From IMG/VR virus record IMGVR_UViG_2529293219_000028: a stretch of 38,658 bases of DNA; one strand, given 5' to 3'. The notes beneath the pieces were generated by a model, which was given only the letters and a program-made list of their open reading frames with translations, was not told where the DNA came from and did no database searches. Position 1 is the first letter of the stretch. The number at the start of each line of letters is the position of its first letter. Source of the DNA: a virus (taxonomy: Duplodnaviria > Heunggongvirae > Uroviricota > Caudoviricetes). Positions 5,336 through 37,687 of the stretch are shown in pieces. A program made the translations under genes and the position numbers.

Positions 5336-5513
5336 CATTCGAAGAGGTTCAAGGTCAACGATTGGAATGCAATATAATATTTTTGAGGTTCCTGACGGAT
5401 GCGTACTTACAGGGCTTGATGTCGCTGGTGATGGTAATGCAACGGTAACCGCATATTATCGACCTGTTCAGTTTCTGATAGATGGTTCGTGGAAAACAGC
5501 TTCCAGCGCATAA
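5157..5513 (+). CDS. Alternative tail-fibre C-terminal cassette (S'v-like), startless and currently not joined to the fibre gene
   Basis: Frame is open from 5064 with no in-frame start; encodes ...GLRDTVNRAANALPSNGAAVAANKLATPRNINGVPFDGTQDINITSGMTQS..., paralogous to residues about 205-260 of the minus-strand fibre, then diverges (ORF-track 5298..5513). Confidence 0.7.
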   Translation, partial: GLRDTVNRAANALPSNGAAVAANKLATPRNINGVPFDGTQDINITSGMTQSVADSRYVQSIRRGSRSTIGMQYNIFEVPDGCVLTGLDVAGDGNATVTAYYRPVQFLIDGSWKTASSA

Positions 5514-5592
5514 AAGTGCAGTAGTTCAAAAAACAGATTATCTGAATAAATATATGATGATTTTGTCTTTTCAACAAAAACAAGGTGAAATA

Positions 5593-6114
5593 ATGGAGCT
5601 TATTAACGTAAAACGATATTACCCGGAACACAAACCCTATGGTGAGGATGTTCAGTATTTCCAGAGTGAGGACGGAAGGGATTTTTATGAATCTATCCCG
5701 CTTTTCACAAAGAAATACAAACTCTGTATTTCGCCTGTAACGGGTATTATCTGCTCTGTTGCTGAAGATGTCTCTGCTTTATATCCGGCAGGTTTTACTG
5801 TTGTTGAAGTGGACGAACTGCCGGAAGGTGTGAATATTGACGGTAACTGGCAGTTTTCTGATGGCCTGATATCAAAGGTGCCGGTAAACTGGAAGACGGT
5901 TGCTGAAAAGCGCCGCTCATCGCTGCTCCAGGAAGCCAACGAAACTGTGGATGACTGGAAAACGGAATTAAAACTGGACATGATTAGCGATGAAAATAAA
6001 TTACAGCTGACGCGCTGGATGGCGTATATCCGACAGCTTAAAGAAATGCACTTTAATGATATTGCCAGTGAGGGGCATTACCAGGCGATTCCCTGGCCGG
6101 AAAAACCGGAATAA
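5593..6114 (+). CDS. Tail fibre assembly (chaperone) protein, Mu U/U'-like
   Basis: MELINVKRYYPEHKPYGEDV... with the AAGGTG RBS before the ATG at 5593 chosen as start; ORF-track frame 5482..6114; identity called from position and general Tfa-like character, not a recognised motif. Confidence 0.7.
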   Translation: MELINVKRYYPEHKPYGEDVQYFQSEDGRDFYESIPLFTKKYKLCISPVTGIICSVAEDVSALYPAGFTVVEVDELPEGVNIDGNWQFSDGLISKVPVNWKTVAEKRRSSLLQEANETVDDWKTELKLDMISDENKLQLTRWMAYIRQLKEMHFNDIASEGHYQAIPWPEKPE

Positions 6115-27861: not shown

Positions 27862-28362
27862 TCAGACTTTCGGCAAGTCGTAGCGACATAACCATTCATC
27901 CGCCGAACGGCGGGCCTCAAGGCCGGGGAGTTTCACCCCCTTTGAATAAATCCAGCGGATATACTGCTTACAGGACGCGGGCATCTGCCCGGCATTGATC
28001 AGGCGCAGAAGCGTGGAGTTGCGAAAGTTCGTTTCACCGGCCCAGAAGATCCACGAAGCCAGCGCCACCGTCTGACCACGGGTAAGCGGCACCTGAACAC
28101 GCCGATCAATGGCCGCAAAGGCCCATTTCATGTCCTTTTCCAGTAGTTCCAGGCATTCTTCATCTGTCAGGGTCATACCCGGTTTCACATCCGGGCCGGT
28201 ATGGCCGTAACAGATGGTGGGTGTACCGGTGGGATCGATATACGTGGAGTTTTCTTTCCCTTCCCAGTAACCGGTGTAATGCGTGGCAATCGTGAACGTC
28301 CCGGCACCGGCCAGAACAAGGGCAATCAGCTTTTTACGCAGTGGTGCGGGGAGTTTTGGCAT
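27862..28362 (-). CDS. Endolysin (phage lysozyme) with N-terminal signal-anchor-release-like hydrophobic segment
   Basis: 166 aa; N-terminal LIALVLAGAGTFTIA followed by lysozyme-like YTGYWEGKENSTYIDPTGTPTICYGHTG. Confidence 0.8.
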   Translation of the reverse strand: MPKLPAPLRKKLIALVLAGAGTFTIATHYTGYWEGKENSTYIDPTGTPTICYGHTGPDVKPGMTLTDEECLELLEKDMKWAFAAIDRRVQVPLTRGQTVALASWIFWAGETNFRNSTLLRLINAGQMPASCKQYIRWIYSKGVKLPGLEARRSADEWLCRYDLPKV

Positions 28363-28433
28363 TGTTACGCTGTCTCATGATGTTCTCTGAGTCAGCGTAA
28401 CGGTGAAGGAGAGGCGGCAGGCTTTGCGGAATA

Positions 28434-28859
28434 TCAGAAAAGTGGCGGTTGCGTTCTTGCCAGATGCAGACGGCGCTGTTCGCGTATGACGGTATAAATC
28501 TGGGTTTCTGACATCCGGTAATGGCGGCGAAGGGATTCAATTTTCTCGCCCCGGTCCCAGCGCGAAAATATCTCATTGTTTCGCAGCTCGGCAAAGAGAG
28601 ATTCCCCGACCGGCAGGTAATAACCCCGTCCGCCCATATAGGCTGCCTGAGCCGCAGCCACCTTGCGTGCCAGTTTACCGGCCAGTACCGGCTCAATCCC
28701 CTGACGCTGAAGTTCTGCGCCGGTGACTTCAACCAGTTCTGACAGGGTCCGCGGCCAGTTCTTTTTGAGAACATCATCAGGGATGTCATCAAGGCGGTCG
28801 ATAAGGGCGTGCAGTTGCTCACTGTCACCACCAAACATGCTCATCTGAGTTTCTGCCAT
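28434..28859 (-). CDS. Mor/C-family transcriptional activator
   Basis: 141 aa; C-terminal region aligns by eye with Mu Mor; sits between the GemA-like gene and the endolysin gene. Confidence 0.75.
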   Translation of the reverse strand: MAETQMSMFGGDSEQLHALIDRLDDIPDDVLKKNWPRTLSELVEVTGAELQRQGIEPVLAGKLARKVAAAQAAYMGGRGYYLPVGESLFAELRNNEIFSRWDRGEKIESLRRHYRMSETQIYTVIREQRRLHLARTQPPLF

Positions 28860-28928
28860 ATCAGCCTCCGGTTCTCGCGTTCCCGGTAAGTTTAAAATAA
28901 AAATCCCGCGTTGTGGCGGGATTTGGGG

Positions 28929-29438
28929 TTAACGGGGAAGTGATTTTTCATACTGCCTGCAAACGGCGTCATACCCCATCAGCGTGCGTTCGGGCATTCC
29001 CATCGCGGCCAGCATTTTGCGGCGGTGCCATCGCTTGAGACGCTCCAGCACATCTGAGGCCAGGGCGGGGTGTTGCTCCAGCCACTGCCAGTTTGCCACA
29101 CCTTCGCCGCCGTTCTGCGCGGCCGTCTGCGATTTCACCCAGCGGTTAAGGGCGGTTTCCGCACCATCGGTGATAAAGCCCTGCCGGTGCATCACCTTCC
29201 AGATGGCGCGAATTTTGGCGGTCACCGTACCCGGTTTTAAGGCCCGGTTAACCGGGTTCTGACGCACTTTAAAACCGCGTTTTTTGAAAACATCCAGCAC
29301 GCGGGATAACTCATCCGGTGACATATCCCGGCAGCTGGTTTTGCCGGTGGCTGCCAGCAGCGCGGATGTATAAGTCTCATCATCCAGGGCAAGCTCGCGC
29401 TTTGCCACATGAATGGCGGATATCAGTTTTCCTCTCAT
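28929..29438 (-). CDS. GemA-like (Mu gp16) regulatory protein
   Basis: 169 aa immediately upstream of the Mor/C gene; synteny. Confidence 0.6.
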   Translation of the reverse strand: MRGKLISAIHVAKRELALDDETYTSALLAATGKTSCRDMSPDELSRVLDVFKKRGFKVRQNPVNRALKPGTVTAKIRAIWKVMHRQGFITDGAETALNRWVKSQTAAQNGGEGVANWQWLEQHPALASDVLERLKRWHRRKMLAAMGMPERTLMGYDAVCRQYEKSLPR

Positions 29439-29731
29439 ACCGTATTTACCTTTTTACGGACATGGAAAGCCTTTTCTGCCTCATCCCACCGGGCATGGTG
29501 TGTTGGTGGAATAATCATTATGTGCCAGCCATCTCTGGTTGTTATCCGGCAGAAAAACTCACCGCTATATAACACAATGGCCTGCTGAATGAGCGCATCA
29601 GCCGCCCGTTCAACCGGATGTCTTTTATCAAAAAAGCAGATGATTTTTCGACATAACCACCGGGTAATAACAAATGCGCCGAAAAAGGATGTGATATATA
29701 AGCACCAGAACAACAGAGAACTATTGTCCAT
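29435..29731 (-). CDS. Hypothetical membrane protein
   Basis: 98 aa; N-terminal hydrophobic segment; AT-rich gene. Confidence 0.5.
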   Translation of the reverse strand: MDNSSLLFWCLYITSFFGAFVITRWLCRKIICFFDKRHPVERAADALIQQAIVLYSGEFFCRITTRDGWHIMIIPPTHHARWDEAEKAFHVRKKVNTV

Positions 29732-29918
29732 TATCTTTCTCCTTATTCACTCTTCTGCGGCATTCGGCACAGTCATCAGGGCTTTCAAATGTATCCGGCT
29801 CGCGATTATGAGCCAGATATAACCACCGTCCACATATACTGATATTTTCGCCTGTTTTAAAAAAATGATGCTTCCTGGCCATTAGTGGCCGCGCCCATCC
29901 AGCGGGTAGACTATTCAT
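29721..29918 (-). CDS. Hypothetical small protein
   Basis: 65 aa ORF in an operon-like array. Confidence 0.4.
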   Translation of the reverse strand: MNSLPAGWARPLMARKHHFFKTGENISICGRWLYLAHNREPDTFESPDDCAECRRRVNKEKDNGQ

Positions 29919-30285
29919 TTGCTTTATCCTCCATGCTGGACAGAATCATATGTATTAATGTCGGGCGTGGAGATATACGCATTTCATTAAGCGTCTGAAG
30001 GGCAGCAACAGCTGCCTGTTTATCGGTGCCTTTGGCAATTTCAGCAAGAGAATGCACAATCCATAACGGACTTAACGCCACGGCTGAATCCAGAATCATG
30101 TCATCCATAATAATTTCTGGCATATCCCGTTTGTCACATTCTTTATCCATAAAAGAAACGATTTTTTCTGCATCTTCCGGTTTCATGCCTCCGGCGATGA
30201 GAATTTTACGATATTCATAAGACGATCTTAATTCAATACTCATATTCATCTCCTGTAACTCTGACAAGGTCGTGATTTTTCTCAT
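29911..30285 (-). CDS. Hypothetical protein
   Basis: 124 aa; overlapping stop/start with neighbours. Confidence 0.55.
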   Translation of the reverse strand: MRKITTLSELQEMNMSIELRSSYEYRKILIAGGMKPEDAEKIVSFMDKECDKRDMPEIIMDDMILDSAVALSPLWIVHSLAEIAKGTDKQAAVAALQTLNEMRISPRPTLIHMILSSMEDKANE

Positions 30286-30467
30286 TTATGTTTTCCAGTA
30301 ATACGGATATATATGTCGATAAGAAGATTCATAATAAACAGGAAGAGCGACATCCTGATAAAGAACCATATATCCGGCATCATGGACAGATTTCCTGTAA
30401 CCGCAAATATAAAACCAACCCCCCACACAGGAACGATAATTGCGAAAAAAACAAGTCTCCTTATCAT
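30282..30467 (-). CDS. Hypothetical small two-TM membrane protein
   Basis: 61 aa with two hydrophobic helices. Confidence 0.5.
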   Translation of the reverse strand: MIRRLVFFAIIVPVWGVGFIFAVTGNLSMMPDIWFFIRMSLFLFIMNLLIDIYIRITGKHK

Positions 30468-31015
30468 GTCGTTAACTCCCGTAATACAACATCTTCGGCA
30501 GTCCGACGACGGTGATAAATAAAACTCACCGTGCCCTCGGATAATTCAAATTTCTCGCCGATTTCCCTAAAGGTAAGACGCCGTGGTGATTCAGCATCCC
30601 GTAATTCACGAATAAGATGAACATCATCGTCAGGTATGCGGGTAAAAGGCAGTAATTCTCCGTATTTTTTCATGCTTACGCCAATATATCGCGCCCGATT
30701 GTGGACAGAATCCCGGTCTCGCCCCAGATATTCTCCTATTTGCTTACCGGTCATCGTCCTGGCATTTTTTCGGATAAATTTATCTTCATCAGGTTTAAAT
30801 CTGAGGCGTTTGCATTTGAGCAACTCCGGGTAAGTACCGCGTAATAAAACAATCCGGTTATGTACACCCCAGAAACTTCTTTTTATCCTGACAGCAATAT
30901 CCTTAACCGGGGTGGATGGATAAAGCGCAATCAGCAGCGCATCTTCTTCAGGTGTCCATGCGCGAACATGAGCGGGTGCACGGCCTTTTCTCCCCATGGG
31001 TTGTAATTTCATCAT
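30464..31015 (-). CDS. DNA-binding protein with three tandem Myb/SANT-like helix-turn-helix repeats
   Basis: 183 aa; three repeats of about 45 aa each starting W/F-x-P-(E/D)-(E/D)-D and ending in a basic helix (WTPEEDALL..., FKPDEDKFI..., IPDDDVHLI...). Confidence 0.6.
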   Translation of the reverse strand: MMKLQPMGRKGRAPAHVRAWTPEEDALLIALYPSTPVKDIAVRIKRSFWGVHNRIVLLRGTYPELLKCKRLRFKPDEDKFIRKNARTMTGKQIGEYLGRDRDSVHNRARYIGVSMKKYGELLPFTRIPDDDVHLIRELRDAESPRRLTFREIGEKFELSEGTVSFIYHRRRTAEDVVLRELTT

Positions 31016-31018
31016 GCA

Positions 31019-31534
31019 TCACCCCCCGACTCGCTTTTCGGCAGCATAAAACTCATCAGACAGAATTTCGGTCATTTTCCGTTTTGCGGAATCATCTTCG
31101 CACTGAAGGTAAATAACATCGTCAACGCAGAACCACTTCACGGGACCATGCAATATTGCTGAGATGTCAATACCCAGCCAGAACAACAGTGCATCGGTTC
31201 TGGCATACGTGACGGGCGAATATTCACGCCACAGACTGTTAAGTTCGTCAGAGGCAACGCGCAGGGCTTTGGGAATACGTGATGTGCGCGGTGTGCAGCT
31301 CCAGCCATTCGACGCAGTCGGTTTTCGCCATAAGTCGCGATGAAAAGGATATTTGTCATCCATAAAGCGCAGCCCTTTAAAACAAAAGCCACTGATACCG
31401 GATACAAATACCGACCGGCACGCAACATTCAGCACGGCCTCAAGGCGTTTTGCCTCATCCTTAACTTTCTGGCAGTCCTGCTGATATTTTTGCCACGCGG
31501 CCAGCGCGGAAGGGTTTGATGTTTTAAAGAACAT
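31019..31534 (-). CDS. Hypothetical early protein
   Basis: 171 aa; stop/start abutting neighbours. Confidence 0.55.
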   Translation of the reverse strand: MFFKTSNPSALAAWQKYQQDCQKVKDEAKRLEAVLNVACRSVFVSGISGFCFKGLRFMDDKYPFHRDLWRKPTASNGWSCTPRTSRIPKALRVASDELNSLWREYSPVTYARTDALLFWLGIDISAILHGPVKWFCVDDVIYLQCEDDSAKRKMTEILSDEFYAAEKRVGG

Positions 31535-32067
31535 TACGCCACCTCCGCAGATATCCCGGCAGGTGCAGCCGTCCGGTCAACAATCAGGTAACGCAGAACA
31601 TGTTCGGTGATATTCCAGCCGCTTAAACCGCAGATAATGACACCCAGGCGAATGTCGATATACGCCATCACAAACTGGGGCACGCCTTCTTTCATGGCCT
31701 GCTCATCAACTTCAACCACCACATAAACGGTTTCGCAGGTCAGTACGCCCTGAGCAAATTCCCACGCCATCGACGGAATATCATGCCCCTCAATCCACGG
31801 CAGGGATTTTCTGAAGCTGCACCACTGAACATCATCAGCCGCACCTTCCTGGCTGCATTTGCGACGAACCGGCTGCACCGGGCGGGGACGCGGAATATCA
31901 TAAAAACCGTTACATTCCGTCAGCACCCCGGCATCGACCGCATCACGCAAAAAATAAACCATCGAGGATGGCGGCATATTCATTTTTTCAGCCAGAATGC
32001 CGCAGGTCAGACGCCCGTAAATACTCAGCCAGTTTTTAACCCCTTCAAGCACTTTTGCATCAATCAT
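31534..32067 (-). CDS. Hypothetical early protein with N-terminal winged-helix-like segment
   Basis: 177 aa. Confidence 0.55.
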   Translation of the reverse strand: MIDAKVLEGVKNWLSIYGRLTCGILAEKMNMPPSSMVYFLRDAVDAGVLTECNGFYDIPRPRPVQPVRRKCSQEGAADDVQWCSFRKSLPWIEGHDIPSMAWEFAQGVLTCETVYVVVEVDEQAMKEGVPQFVMAYIDIRLGVIICGLSGWNITEHVLRYLIVDRTAAPAGISAEVA

Positions 32068-32070
32068 GAA

Positions 32071-32613
32071 TTATTCCTCCGTCAGCGCCACATATTCAGA
32101 ATGTTTAATTTCCTGGCATTCTTCAGGAATACACCCTTTTATTTCCCTGCCATAAGCGCCTACTTTAAACACCACGCACAGGGCATCACGGGAGAGCGAC
32201 GGGGTCCACCAGGAGTCCGTGTTAAACATGGAGGGGATTCTCATTACCCCCAGCTTTTCACAGAGCCAGACAAGGAAATCAGGACGCTTTCTTAACTCAC
32301 GTTCAGCGGTTTCAATCATTGCGGCAATCGCCGGACCTTCAGGGCATGACTCATCAGGTCTGGCAATAAAGCACGGTCCGTCCCCGATAAAAGCCACATC
32401 ATCGCGCTTACGCCAGCCCGCAGGCAGAGCACCAGAAAAATAAAACTCACTGATTACGTCCATGGCAAACGGCTTTAAGCGCAATCCGGCAGCGCCTGTA
32501 TTTTTCAGTAATGCCCGAAGAATACTGTTGCGTAGCGGTAAAACAGTCTGTTGATATTTGGTGAAATATTTATTTGTCTGCACACGGTCTAATTTGAAAT
32601 AAAAATATGCCAT
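32071..32613 (-). CDS. Hypothetical early protein
   Basis: 180 aa. Confidence 0.55.
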   Translation of the reverse strand: MAYFYFKLDRVQTNKYFTKYQQTVLPLRNSILRALLKNTGAAGLRLKPFAMDVISEFYFSGALPAGWRKRDDVAFIGDGPCFIARPDESCPEGPAIAAMIETAERELRKRPDFLVWLCEKLGVMRIPSMFNTDSWWTPSLSRDALCVVFKVGAYGREIKGCIPEECQEIKHSEYVALTEE

Positions 32614-32710
32614 ATATCCTGTTCCTTATTTTCAGTTTACAGGCGCAGGCAGTCCCCTGACGCGAGCGCCATAATTAAAACGAAGTGATATTTAATTGAT
32701 TAATGCGGTG

Positions 32711-33241
32711 TTATTTATTCAGTCCGGCGTCCTGTTCAAAAGGCTCGACATAAAAACTTTCAGCGCCTTTATTCACCTTAATACCGGCAATCCCTTTCAC
32801 CGCATCCGGCTCCGCCAGGACCGCTTCCTTGTTCACTTCCTCTTTCGTGCGGATAAAACGCTCAAGGCCCATACGGCGCAGCATTTCAATCACACCTTCC
32901 ACATCACGACTGACGCTGCATGATGGATTCCCCAGTCGCCATGACACCGTTCCGGTGGTCAGATTGGCAGTTTTGGTTTTGCCGCCGTTCGTCAGCTCAT
33001 CACGGTTGGTTTTGCACCAGTCCTGAATCCCCTTAAAAAGCACTTTGATTTCTTTTTTAAGGTTTTCAATCTGCGGCGTATAACGGGCGGTGATTTCTGC
33101 CACTTCATCATTCATCGCTGTTTCCAGGCGCAGCGCCTCTCGCTGAATATCGCCCAGGGTGCGGATATCGCGGCTGACCTCTTCACGGGTCTGCGGTGCC
33201 GCCTCTGCTGCGGCCTTTAATTTTGTAACGCGTTTTGCCAT
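32711..33241 (-). CDS. gam: Host-nuclease inhibitor Gam (Ku-like DNA end-binding protein)
   Basis: 176 aa; MAKRVTKLKAAAEAA...DELTNGGKTKTANLTTGTVSWR...FIRTKEEVNKEAV... closely matches Mu Gam as recalled. Confidence 0.85.
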   Translation of the reverse strand: MAKRVTKLKAAAEAAPQTREEVSRDIRTLGDIQREALRLETAMNDEVAEITARYTPQIENLKKEIKVLFKGIQDWCKTNRDELTNGGKTKTANLTTGTVSWRLGNPSCSVSRDVEGVIEMLRRMGLERFIRTKEEVNKEAVLAEPDAVKGIAGIKVNKGAESFYVEPFEQDAGLNK

Positions 33242-33252
33242 TTTGTTTTTCC

Positions 33253-33546
33253 TTATTGCAGTGTGCCTGATGCTTTATGCACGCGGTGGCGTTTAATGAT
33301 GGCATCCGCCCCAAAAGCCTGTACAGATGCCTGAAATTCCGCTGAGAGAAACTGAATAATTTCAGGGCTGTGATACTGGAGAATACTTGCATAAACGTCA
33401 CAGAGTGACGTCGGCCTGTTATTCGTATCACGTTCTGTTTTTACATCCACACCAATCTTTTCATGCACTTCAACACAGTCATTGCCTGCCGGTTTTTCGT
33501 CATGCGAAACATGCTTAAATTCAAAAATAACGCGTACTTTGCTCAT
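33253..33546 (-). CDS. Hypothetical small protein, paralogue of the adjacent gene
   Basis: Starts MSKVRVIFEFKHV... (internal Met of track ORF 33253..33573); resembles the neighbour's MSKVVRIIFEYKEHV... Confidence 0.55.
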   Translation of the reverse strand: MSKVRVIFEFKHVSHDEKPAGNDCVEVHEKIGVDVKTERDTNNRPTSLCDVYASILQYHSPEIIQFLSAEFQASVQAFGADAIIKRHRVHKASGTLQ

Positions 33547-33550
33547 GGAA

Positions 33551-33823
33551 TTACCCCTGCTGATTAAATTCATTACCTTTAATAACCCCGGAACGCATGC
33601 TCATATCTTTCATGAGCGCACTGGCTTTCATTGCCACAAGTTCAGCAAAGTCTCTGCTTTCCGCGAGCATAACCACCCCAAAAATCATGGCGGGTCCATC
33701 ACCTTTCTGCTTTATCCCGGTTGAACGTATGTCCAGACTTACCCCCATGCGCACTGTTCCATCAGCGTTTTTATGGATAACGTGCTCCTTGTATTCGAAA
33801 ATAATGCGTACGACTTTACTCAC
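33551..33823 (-). CDS. Hypothetical small protein, paralogue of the adjacent gene
   Basis: 90 aa; shared N-terminal motif with 33253..33546. Confidence 0.55.
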   Translation of the reverse strand: MSKVVRIIFEYKEHVIHKNADGTVRMGVSLDIRSTGIKQKGDGPAMIFGVVMLAESRDFAELVAMKASALMKDMSMRSGVIKGNEFNQQG

Positions 33824-34369: not shown

Positions 34370-34597
34370 TTAGCTGACTTGTTTCGCACCAACAGAACGG
34401 CATATTCCGCTGTAAACGTCTGTCGCACCTTCGCGATCAAGTCCGGCAGATATCACCATTCGTGTGCGGTCATTAAATTCAAAAAGTAAATCGCCACATT
34501 CTTTATTTTCGGCCAGTGAAATCACCTTCACGTTATCGAAATTAACCAGGTAAAAGCGTCCGTAAATATCAGGAATATAAAATACCGCCATAATCAC
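34370..34597 (-). CDS. Small early protein in the position of Mu kil
   Basis: 75 aa ORF directly downstream of the B-like gene; assignment by position and size only. Confidence 0.45.
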   Translation of the reverse strand: MIMAVFYIPDIYGRFYLVNFDNVKVISLAENKECGDLLFEFNDRTRMVISAGLDREGATDVYSGICRSVGAKQVS

Positions 34598-35526
34598 ACC
34601 TGTGAGAGTAATTCAGGGTTGGTATAAACCTCTTTAAAGGCCGCATTAATATGTTTTTCTGTCAGCGCCGCACCTTCACCGCTGGCGGTGAGCCACGCCT
34701 GGTTAAGCGTATGTGTCAGAACGCGTAACGCTCCCGGCTTTTCAGCGATAGCCTGCATGACGGCCAGCTCGGCCTCACCACTGATACCCCATGCCCTGGC
34801 AATGGCCAGCACATCCGCCTTTTTGGCCTTGCGAAGTTGTTTTGTACGGGCAAGACGGCTGAACAGGCGCGATAAATCATCAAAGGCGCGGCGTCCACCT
34901 TTAAACAATCCGCGCGGGTTACCAATAAGCACCATCCCGATCCCCGTGGCGTCCTGAATTGCCCGGAGTTGCTCCAGACCGTCAATACCAAGATGATCCG
35001 CCTCATCCACAATCACCAGTCCACGCGTTCCCATCAGGCGACGGCGGATGGCGCGGGATAATGCCCCTTTGTTCGCGCGGGTGTAATCAATCCCCAGCGC
35101 ATCGGCCAGCTCCAGCAGACACTCCGTGACGCTGGAGTGCGCGGGTGACAGGGTGATCATCCAGGTGTTTGGTTGCTCCTGGCAGTAATTACGGGCGGTG
35201 GCCGTTTTACCTACCCCCGGCACGCCCACAATGACGTTAATACAGCCCATCAGGCGAACCGCCTGAAACAGTGCGCGCAGCTCCTGAACTGTCTGCGTTT
35301 CCACAAACTGCGGCGGTTCCGGCAGTGCGCTTTGTTTATTCCAGTTCTCATACCAGGAACGCAGGGAAGCAGCCACAGCGGCGTTATCGCCTTTATATTT
35401 CCCCTTGCGGAAAGCCGATAATGTGCCGTCGGAAATTCCCGCCTCTCTGGCGATGGCATACTGCGTCAGTACGCCGCCATCAATAAGTTCATCAATGGTC
35501 TTGATTACATCGTTAATATCAGTCAT
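34594..35526 (-). CDS. Transposition ATPase, Mu B-like (AAA+)
   Basis: 310 aa; Walker A VGVPGVGKTATARNY; directly downstream of the transposase gene. Confidence 0.85.
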   Translation of the reverse strand: MTDINDVIKTIDELIDGGVLTQYAIAREAGISDGTLSAFRKGKYKGDNAAVAASLRSWYENWNKQSALPEPPQFVETQTVQELRALFQAVRLMGCINVIVGVPGVGKTATARNYCQEQPNTWMITLSPAHSSVTECLLELADALGIDYTRANKGALSRAIRRRLMGTRGLVIVDEADHLGIDGLEQLRAIQDATGIGMVLIGNPRGLFKGGRRAFDDLSRLFSRLARTKQLRKAKKADVLAIARAWGISGEAELAVMQAIAEKPGALRVLTHTLNQAWLTASGEGAALTEKHINAAFKEVYTNPELLSQV

Positions 35527-35596: not shown

Positions 35597-37687
35597 TCAG
35601 GCCAGCGGGTCATTTTCTTTTAATTTCGCTTCGAGCAACTGCAATCCCCGCTGGAAATTGCGCTCGTATTCTTCATCAGGCTCATCATCAATGGCAGGTT
35701 GCTGAACGGCCACCGTATTACCTACCGGGCGATAGATGTTTTCCAGCCAGGGCTCCTGCGGCTTGTGCTCCAGCACGTTGACAACCTCATCCTCGGCATC
35801 ACGGATTTTTTCCTCTGCGCGTTTACGCATGCCTTTAAGGCGTTGCTGCTGTTTGTAGTATTCCGCGCTAACCGGGAAGGCTTCGCGTTTATTACCGTCC
35901 CATACCGCCTCGCAAATCACGCTGCCATCCAGGCGACGTACGGTAATTCGTTCGGCATCATGAATGTCATAGCTGATAAGCACCTTGCGGCCATGCTCAT
36001 CACGCAGCTCGGGCGCGTAGTAAATATTATTCAGCCAGCGTATTTCACAGCGTCTTACAGGGCGTTCCACCATCGGCCGGAACATGTCCCGCAATTCCAC
36101 ATCGGACAGCCATTCAATTTCCGTGTCCTCTTCCGCCAGGCGTTTTTTTCTGAACTCCGCCGGGCTGTAATGCTTGCCGTTCGGCTTCACCGGTAATTCA
36201 TCGTGCGGCCGGTTGTTGTACCACTCAACACCATCACGAATGGCATCAATCAGTTCAGACCAGGACGGTAAATCACGCATCGCTGACTGCTGCCGGGCGT
36301 TCAGCCGTTTGCCCTGTTGCAGGGCAGTAAATGCCGAGCGTAAATCGCGGTTGGTTTTGCGTAACGTCTCGCGATCTGCACCTTTCCCGAAATAGGTGCG
36401 GTATTTACGGGCTATGCGCATCGGTAATGTGCGGTTAAGCCGTTCGATAATGCCTCGTCCCTGCGGATTACCGGCAATCCCGGTCGGGTGATTAATCCCC
36501 AGTCGCGGCAGTATCCCCACAACCTCCTTATCCAGGATGTCGGCGGTTTCCCCGGAGCCGTTATCCGAGTAATACAGAAACGGTTTGCCGTGATGGCGAA
36601 TGCCGTGCTGTATGGCACCGGCTACGGCGAAAACATTTTCAGCCAGGTCAAGGCTCCAGCCCACCACAAAGCGCGTGCCACCGTCGATAACAAAGGTCAC
36701 TTCCGGTGCAAATGGCCGACCGTGAACCGGGTGTGCGCATTTCAGCTTCATGCCGTGACCGTCACCAATCCAGACATAATTCACCGGCATTCTGGACCAG
36801 TCGCGGCGCGTGAATCCCTCAAGCTGGCGGTATTCACTGCCGGTCACCCGGCCTTTTTGTTTCACCACTTCCGGCAGTTTCTTCATTGCGCGGCGAATGG
36901 TGTCATAAGACGGCATGATATCGAGCATATAAGGCTCATCAGCGTGCCGGTGCTGCCATTCAGCGACAAAATCCTCGTAAGCCTCGGTCATTGGTCGGCC
37001 GTTTGACTGGCGATACTGCGCCAGAAATTCGGGCAGCCAGTTAATATCTTCGGCTTTTATTTCCTGGCGTTTACCCGGTGCCAGTAAAAGCAGGCGTTCA
37101 GCGGCGTTCTGTGCCTTGTTAAAGGCCGCAATCCATCGCTTCAGCGTGATTTCACTCAACGCACGGCTGTTTCCCTTTTTGGCGTTCGCCGTCTCAACCA
37201 TTGCCACAATGCGCTCGTCCAGCTGTGAACGTGCCAGGTTGTCAACGATAAACCGGATAGCCTTCGCGCAGCTGAAACCGGGTTGTTGCGCGACTTTCAT
37301 CACTTCGCTGACGATCGCGATTCGTGCATCAGCCACCTGGCGCTGGTTTTCAGTCAGGGCATTGAGGCGTTCGACCATCAGTTGTGGTGATCCGCGATAT
37401 GCCTCCACCGCATCAACCACGTCAGATGAGCGTCTGGCCTTTGTCACCACCGGAGCCGGTGATTCATCGGCTTTTTGCGTCATCAGTTGCAGGGCATAAC
37501 GTTCACGTAATGCCTGCTGCGTCACTTCAGGTAAACAGTCGATGCTGTATTCAGTTGCTTTAGAGCCTGAGCGACGACGGGAACAACAGCTTTTCCCTTG
37601 TACGTAACGTTGTAATGCCTGGCGAATACCTTTTGTTGTAGCAGGCATTCCGGGCGCGCCAATCAGTTCTTTTGCAATGACATACAT
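35597..37687 (-). CDS. DDE transposase, Mu A-like
   Basis: 696 aa; catalytic-core motifs WIGDGHGMKLKCAHPVHGRPF and LYYSDNGSGE; follows ner with start/stop overlap. Confidence 0.9.
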   Translation of the reverse strand: MYVIAKELIGAPGMPATTKGIRQALQRYVQGKSCCSRRRSGSKATEYSIDCLPEVTQQALRERYALQLMTQKADESPAPVVTKARRSSDVVDAVEAYRGSPQLMVERLNALTENQRQVADARIAIVSEVMKVAQQPGFSCAKAIRFIVDNLARSQLDERIVAMVETANAKKGNSRALSEITLKRWIAAFNKAQNAAERLLLLAPGKRQEIKAEDINWLPEFLAQYRQSNGRPMTEAYEDFVAEWQHRHADEPYMLDIMPSYDTIRRAMKKLPEVVKQKGRVTGSEYRQLEGFTRRDWSRMPVNYVWIGDGHGMKLKCAHPVHGRPFAPEVTFVIDGGTRFVVGWSLDLAENVFAVAGAIQHGIRHHGKPFLYYSDNGSGETADILDKEVVGILPRLGINHPTGIAGNPQGRGIIERLNRTLPMRIARKYRTYFGKGADRETLRKTNRDLRSAFTALQQGKRLNARQQSAMRDLPSWSELIDAIRDGVEWYNNRPHDELPVKPNGKHYSPAEFRKKRLAEEDTEIEWLSDVELRDMFRPMVERPVRRCEIRWLNNIYYAPELRDEHGRKVLISYDIHDAERITVRRLDGSVICEAVWDGNKREAFPVSAEYYKQQQRLKGMRKRAEEKIRDAEDEVVNVLEHKPQEPWLENIYRPVGNTVAVQQPAIDDEPDEEYERNFQRGLQLLEAKLKENDPLA

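Follow-up and report, generated by a model that had tools for sequence, protein, structure and literature searches.

ECs_4956 is an early gene in Sp18, a Mu-like prophage of E. coli O157:H7 Sakai, and encodes a protein of 183 amino acids. In the predicted structure this protein consists of a short basic arm and three tandem helix-turn-helix (HTH) domains, with nothing else, and sequence comparison assigns it to the phage protein family PHROG 323. We consider it probable, at about 70%, that this early-operon protein is a duplex-DNA-binding accessory factor that tunes transcription and/or replication. The PHROG 323 family has already been catalogued, with NCBI names that include 'SANT/Myb domain-containing protein', its fold is a standard one, and with ECs_4956 no novel type of system comes to light. 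What is added here is a dissection of the domains, a correction of the AsnC label, and the links among ECs_4956, its relatives in Mu (gp9) and T5 (gpD5), and the dam-proximal gene of P2-like prophages. A gene labeled as a hypothetical protein of prophage Sp18 in the Sakai RefSeq record, with relatives that are mislabeled in NCBI, now has a structural and a family assignment. Three little-studied early genes are thereby tied to T5 gpD5, the sole family member with genetics, and one set of experiments could explain a family of early proteins that is widespread among phages.

ECs_4956 in the early operon of prophage Sp18

The window, which is the whole stretch of 38,658 nucleotides that was analyzed, corresponds to Sp18 at 99.9% identity. 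Sp18 is regarded as an intact Mu-like prophage (PMC2669165). It lies reversed in the window, and the early operon is therefore found on the - strand, as are all genes listed in this paragraph. The operon starts with ner, followed by A (35597-37687), B (34594-35526) and several small genes. Further along are gam (32711-33241), ECs_4953 (32071-32613) and the homologues of Mu gp11 (31534-32067) and Mu gp12 (31019-31534, with the stop codon TGA at 31019-31021). ECs_4956 comes next, at 30464-31015, with its TGA stop codon at 30464-30466. The preliminary description had placed an open reading frame (ORF) of 183 amino acids at exactly these coordinates, and the ORF list and RefSeq both agree. Four small ORFs lie between ECs_4956 and gemA (28929-29438), and a Mor/C-family gene (28434-28859) follows behind an intrinsic terminator, with the lysis genes next.

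The dN/dS ratio of ECs_4956, calculated by the Nei-Gojobori method against homologues that are 72-97% identical, is 0.18-0.26. This rejects a chance ORF and shows that ECs_4956 is a real gene under purifying selection. On its upstream side (31016-31030, - strand), the sequence contains a G-rich Shine-Dalgarno-like run at 31022-31027 and the gp12 stop codon TGA, which ends 3 nt before the ATG. The junction has an identical arrangement in all Sp18-like loci, where the gene always directly follows the gp12 homologue. On its downstream side, the ECs_4956 stop codon and the start codon of ECs_5772 share an ATGA overlap (30464-30467, - strand), visible in the sequence and in RefSeq. In this arrangement, ECs_4956 is translationally coupled on both sides. 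ECs_5772 itself is a hydrophobic ORF of 61 amino acids (30282-30467, - strand) that is present in only some Sp18-like loci. Over the region 28300-33400, the counts of predicted promoters and terminators equal those expected from shuffled sequence, and a dedicated promoter for ECs_4956 is not indicated.

In a megablast search of 5426 complete E. coli genomes, ECs_4956 was found at 272 places in 231 genomes, which is ~4% of the set and includes many O157, O26 and O103 pathogens. For the adjoining gp11-gp12 segment, the same set gave 275 places, spread over 233 genomes. The near-equal counts indicate that ECs_4956 is a near-constant part of Sp18-type prophages. PADLOC gave no defense-system match for ECs_4956 and seven neighbors, and Rfam gave no RNA family across the whole window.

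Domain structure of ECs_4956

The three repeats of ECs_4956 each start with a cap, WTPEED at residue 20, FKPDED at residue 73 and IPDDD at residue 127, as had been quoted in the preliminary description. The number of repeats given there is borne out by the AlphaFold2 model and by the profiles. Its estimate of the period, ~45 residues, is too short; the caps recur every 53-54 residues, which corresponds to a domain of ~40-45 residues plus a linker. When the repeats were compared by local alignment of the single sequence against shuffles, repeats 1 and 2 were significantly similar (z = 4.1, p = 0.0025), the similarity of repeats 2 and 3 was marginal (p = 0.04), and that of repeats 1 and 3 was not significant. 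The comparison was repeated with hhalign on slices of A1, a family alignment of 27 members that includes homologues 41-98% identical. Repeats 1 and 2 then matched with 98% probability (E 4.6e-14), which rejects chance repeats, repeats 2 and 3 with 68% (E 4.6e-5), and repeats 1 and 3 with 9% only. Judged by these alignments, repeats 1 and 2 are clearly a true duplication. Repeat 3 shares their HTH fold and has diverged further.

The AlphaFold2 model calculated on A1 has a mean pLDDT of 85. It contains three bundles of three helices each, closely similar in helix length, and no strands, and neither the model nor profile searches point to any enzymatic family, in line with the HTH repeats that had been anticipated. 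The pTM is 0.52, which is not surprising when flexible linkers join the domains. The N-terminal basic arm, MMKLQPMGRKGRAPAHVR (residues 1-18; 30962-31015, - strand), has a net charge of +5 and is predicted to be disordered, with a pLDDT of 47-67 over the first 20 residues; Gly-10 and His-15 of the arm are invariant in A1. Repeat 1 (residues 19-68; 30812-30961, - strand) is a Myb-like three-helix HTH domain with the WTPEED cap. Its helices comprise ORF residues 22-31, 37-44 and 48-59 (21-30, 36-43 and 47-58 in the model, where residue numbers equal the ORF numbers minus one). Its duplicate, repeat 2 (residues 69-122; 30650-30811, - strand), carries the FKPDED cap and has helices at residues 75-84, 90-97 and 101-110 (model 74-83, 89-96 and 100-109), after which comes a conserved K-x-G linker. 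Repeat 2 is the most basic domain, with a net charge of +8.

Repeat 3 (residues 123-183; 30467-30649, - strand) is an HTH domain of the sigma-70-region-4/AsnC type, with helices at residues 129-140, 149-156 and 160-169 (model 128-139, 148-155 and 159-168) and a fourth, C-terminal helix at residues 173-181 (model 172-180). It is slightly acidic, with a net charge of -2. Repeat 3 is also the most conserved of the domains; it holds 15 of the 27 invariant columns of A1 and has the lowest dN in distant comparisons. Its conserved residues are situated mainly in helices 1 and 2, and less in the presumed recognition helix.

The assignment of repeats 1 and 2 comes mainly from profile searches. With the single ECs_4956 sequence, a search of the PDB gave nothing below E 0.2. 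With the A1 profile, the top PDB match is c-Myb (E 4.9e-6), where c-Myb residues 60-150 are covered in one stretch by profile positions 18-106, with repeats 1 and 2 in register with Myb R2 and R3. B-Myb, the tandem-HTH protein 2lvs and Trichomonas Myb proteins follow. In Pfam, Myb_DNA-binding (PF00249) matches ECs_4956 with 16.6 bits over residues 19-31 only, below the cut-off of 24.4, and is matched by 20 of the 27 relatives at E<0.01, with a best value of 6.3e-9. The family therefore looks Myb-like, yet the ECs_4956 sequence alone stays below the PF00249 threshold. By fold, repeats 1 and 2 resemble GcrA, SANT and Myb domains. The fold-match figures are 6.3 for the Bdp1 SANT and CDC5L Myb domains and 6.2 for WER R2R3, Reb1, the CoREST SANT domain and the Tc3 transposase, with sigma factors and Lrp/AsnC HTH domains after these. 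As in Myb/SANT proteins, the domains have three helices and ~50 residues, the HTH is formed by helices 2 and 3, and the tandem spacing is like that of Myb R2R3.

There are also clear differences from the known proteins of this class. Compared with eukaryotic Myb, the phage protein lacks the three-tryptophan signature and keeps only its first aromatic (Trp-20 and Phe-73, with tryptophan in some relatives). The second and third tryptophan positions are aliphatic in the c-Myb alignment, and the third domain, which has Ile-127 at the first position, is of another HTH type. Repeats 1 and 2 have the fold of the N-terminal DNA-binding domain of GcrA, but Caulobacter GcrA (PDB code 5yiu) combines one such domain with a sigma-70-interacting domain that is missing from ECs_4956. 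Sulfolobus Cbp1 (PDB code 2lvs) is closer in construction, since it too is small and made of nothing but HTH modules in a row, with short linkers between them. The A1 profile matches Cbp1 over two modules with E 1.6e-4, and in Foldseek it ranks fourth, although not significantly. Cbp1 is archaeal and chromosomal and binds CRISPR repeats, a role that has no counterpart in Sp18.

Repeat 3 is where the preliminary description, which had proposed three Myb/SANT-like repeats, has to be amended. The c-Myb R2R3 match supports that proposal for repeats 1 and 2, whereas the best Pfam match of repeat 3 is Sigma70_r4, with 23.5 bits against a cut-off of 24.1 over residues 145-169. Sigma70_r4 is matched by 20 of the 27 relatives, down to E 8.9e-7. 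Repeat 3 also matches HTH_AsnC-type, with 20.1 bits against a cut-off of 27, as do 20 of the 27 relatives. Repeats 1 and 2 are thus Myb/SANT/GcrA-like and repeat 3 is of the sigma-4/AsnC type, all within one broad HTH fold class.

Neither of the names suggested by repeat 3 fits the whole protein. Regions 2 and 3 of sigma-70 are absent from ECs_4956 by Pfam and TIGR02937 profiles, the latter with 18.6 against a cut-off of 42.9, and only the region-4-like HTH is present; region 2 is the part of a sigma factor that contacts the -10 element and the core polymerase. A whole-chain Foldseek search of the PDB returned nothing significant, as expected for flexibly linked domains; the best E was 0.075, and sigma factors had a TM of ~0.2. 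A sigma-factor identity was rejected on these values. NCBI names relatives 'AsnC family protein', which would make ECs_4956 an AsnC/Lrp-family regulator in keeping with the weak HTH_AsnC-type match. That match is below threshold and lies in the C-terminal domain, however, whereas AsnC/Lrp proteins have their winged HTH at the N terminus, and the α-β ligand-binding (RAM) domain expected at the C terminus is absent, without any match to AsnC_trans_reg. The all-helical model leaves no space for such a domain, since the three HTH bundles fill the whole length. We regard an AsnC identity as practically untenable and reject the label for ECs_4956; the NCBI name is wrong, as the second domain that defines the family is lacking.

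Relatives in T5, Mu and P2-like phages

When ECs_4956 was compared with the PHROG profiles, it matched PHROG 323, 'transcriptional regulator, D5-like', with E 1.1e-58 and 200 bits. Residues 2-182 align to profile positions 80-256 of 319, and on this basis ECs_4956 is a full-length member of PHROG 323. The family owes its name to gene D5 of phage T5, the product of which (T5.118, 255 amino acids) is the type member and matches the profile with E 1.2e-71. In hhalign, A1 and T5 D5 match with 96.6% probability (E 5e-10) over 144 columns at ~27% identity, and the three domains align in order, A1 columns 19-172 to D5 residues 72-232. T5 D5 gives the same weak Pfam series, Myb, then HTH, then Sigma70_r4, and it is likewise an early gene, situated inside the T5 replication module. 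It is longer than ECs_4956 by ~70 N-terminal residues and a C-terminal tail.

In the T5 RefSeq note, and in the passages of PMC12630848 that cite McCorquodale et al. (1979), gpD5 is described as a DNA-binding protein that is needed for T5 replication and late transcription and is involved in early shut-off. T5 is a virulent phage in which D5 is described as required, whereas ECs_4956 belongs to a region that is dispensable in Mu. The kinship with gpD5 is remote at 27% identity, and the function may therefore not transfer to ECs_4956.

A second relative in PHROG 323 is Mu gp9 (E8), a protein of 99 amino acids with two domains. It aligns to repeats 2 and 3 with E 6e-10 and 32% identity in BLASTP, its first domain being homologous to repeat 2, and it has neither the Myb-like repeat 1 nor the basic arm. 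Like ECs_4956, Mu gp9 is encoded by a transposable phage, in the semi-essential part of its early region. Its gene lies immediately upstream of gam (5482-5781 in locus L002), whereas ECs_4956 in Sp18 instead follows gp12. The position equivalent to that of Mu gp9 is taken in Sp18 by a gene of another family, phrog_2230 (33253-33573). In literature searches, no paper was found on ECs_4956, on Mu gp9/E8 or on phage proteins of this Myb-like type.

Homologues that are 41-47% identical are found in the early operons of P2-like prophages. In 19 P2-like prophage loci, a D12-class Dam methyltransferase gene is followed by the homologue, then by zero to two genes, and then by replication gene A. This order holds across Dam identities of 53-100% (loci L046-L065; for example L046, 4476-9146, and L055, 5057-10052). 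A PAPS-reductase-like or other gene is sometimes inserted in these loci. In the early operon of the isolated Citrobacter phage Shae_phiSM (Peduoviridae), a homologue precedes the replication endonuclease gene, without dam. The family thus occurs in tightly packed early/replication modules of three unrelated phage types.

The position directly downstream of Dam, together with the match of some multi-repeat relatives to Pfam GcrA, is what would be expected of a GcrA-like reader of Dam-methylated or hemimethylated DNA that couples early functions to the methylation state. For ECs_4956, however, Pfam GcrA (PF07750) gives no match even at E<=10, and the sigma-70-interacting C-terminal domain of GcrA has no counterpart, the full length being taken up by the three HTH bundles. 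In addition, dam is not beside the gene in Sp18 or in Shae_phiSM, and its adjacency in the P2-like loci may be no more than a gene order inherited within one phage lineage. A role as methylation reader is therefore very unlikely.

The preliminary description held that a triple architecture of this kind is uncommon in phage early regions. This is contradicted by PHROG 323 with T5 gpD5 and Mu gp9, by the early operons of P2-like phages, and by BFVD, which contains many phage multi-HTH proteins of like size, several of them from phage Goslar, as well as endonucleases with such modules. Multi-HTH architectures are common in phages, not rare.

An exhaustive profile search found 13,887 representative proteins at E<=0.001. 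Among these matches, approximately two dozen clusters of ~180 amino acids have the whole architecture. Many longer relatives, mostly metagenomic, contain five to ten tandem copies of the repeat-1/2 unit, and those with names are called SANT/Myb-like, Lrp or CsgD-type. The metagenomic multi-copy proteins of 300-900 amino acids include P0033, P0034 and P0038. One such protein comes from a Propionibacteriaceae metagenome-assembled genome (MAG), and in P0034 the repeats are fused to a ResIII/Helicase_C helicase. Species-representative genomes gave one distant match only, in a Verrucomicrobiae MAG, which says little on host range.

The repeat module was also observed in Mycobacterium phage Bombitas, within gp109 (locus L070, 2004-3431), a gene annotated as a C5 DNA methyltransferase. 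The methylase match of gp109 is confined to the N-terminal half of the profile, and the repeat module comes after it. Sister cluster-J phages have an HNH endonuclease annotated at this place. A fusion of methyltransferase and repeat module was rejected as the explanation, because the HNH annotation in the sister phages and the half-profile methylase match make the DNA-binding module of a homing endonuclease simpler. This suggests that a homing endonuclease was inserted in, or merged with, the cluster-J methylase gene.

Possible roles in the early program

ECs_4956 would be made from the early transcript, and its recognition helices and basic arm would be expected to bind duplex DNA. Three modules separated by linkers of ~10 residues could span roughly two helical turns. 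By analogy with gpD5, the protein may tune transcription and/or the replication of phage DNA during early lytic growth, as an accessory factor that is not essential. Within PHROG 323, binding to duplex DNA that affects replication or late transcription has been reported for T5 gpD5 alone, and for ECs_4956 we infer it from this relative. The basic character of the protein, which by charge count has a pI of 10.1 and a net charge of +13, argues for DNA binding. The semi-essential early region of Mu is dispensable for plaque formation, and any role of ECs_4956 is therefore an accessory one.

No DNA target site for ECs_4956 was found. Mu-like and P2-like phages that infect the same enteric hosts share a near-identical architecture, and for this reason it is our conjecture that ECs_4956 may recognize some feature of the host, or DNA in general, and not a phage-specific operator.

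The acidic charge of repeat 3 and the conservation in its helices 1 and 2 would also fit a protein-contact role. ECs_4956 might act mainly in this way, as a takeover factor in which a SANT-like or sigma-region-4-like domain serves as a decoy on host RNA polymerase, for example at the beta flap, or on another host protein. Binding to proteins is frequent among SANT domains, the Sigma70_r4 scores given above make repeat 3 similar to sigma-70 region 4.2, and the presence of the same gene in unrelated phages of the same hosts favors a host target. The protein overall is nevertheless strongly basic, its relative gpD5 is described as DNA-binding in the T5 sources cited, and both the missing sigma regions 2 and 3 and the whole-chain Foldseek comparison with sigma factors (E at least 0.075) count against sigma mimicry. 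We consider action mainly through protein contacts unlikely, and prefer the accessory DNA-binding factor.

The end of the early operon raises another alternative. In the scan of 28300-33400, one element stands out, a strong intrinsic terminator at 28901-28924 (- strand) formed by a 9-bp stem, AAATCCCGC/GCGGGATTT, and a following TTATTTT. Within the region 28860-28931 (- strand), this terminator lies right after the gemA stop codon and ~40 nt before the ATG of the Mor/C-family gene, so that there is no obvious room for a promoter. The Mor/C-family gene, directly behind the terminator that ends the early operon, is the only one of its kind in Sp18 and in all related loci, and its product is 39% identical to Mu C versus 26% to Mor. 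Sp18-type phages thus do not have the two-step Mor-then-C cascade of Mu. Because almost all Sp18-type prophages have the three-HTH gene, and gpD5 is described as needed for late transcription in the T5 sources, ECs_4956 could replace Mor as the early activator of the single C-like late activator gene. It would then be the missing second transcriptional regulator that the preliminary description had proposed.

Several observations argue against such a replacement. Mu has both Mor and C and yet encodes gp9, which belongs to the family, and the family is also found in P2-like phages, beside replication gene A. Late genes of the P2 type are under the control of Ogr-type factors, and a single Mor/C protein is enough for many transposable phages. 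ECs_4956 itself has no similarity to the Mor family (PF08765) in Pfam, and a shared binding motif was not found. A substitution for Mor therefore seems improbable. There is a similarly small chance that the three-HTH protein is the early factor that switches on the late program, perhaps through its sigma-region-4-like domain or else by reading adenine methylation, as the dam adjacency in P2-like phages hints; if true, the middle step of the Mu cascade would here be solved without Mor. An accessory role in transcription and/or replication remains the reading that we favor.

The segment just downstream of ECs_4956 is mosaic among Sp18-like loci, and the four small genes situated there are present, absent or swapped. 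This segment (29435-30467) and ECs_4953 (32071-32613) behave as replaceable cassettes among Sp18-like prophages that are otherwise 90-100% identical. In several of these loci, the ECs_4953 slot is filled by a protein that is only 23-31% identical.
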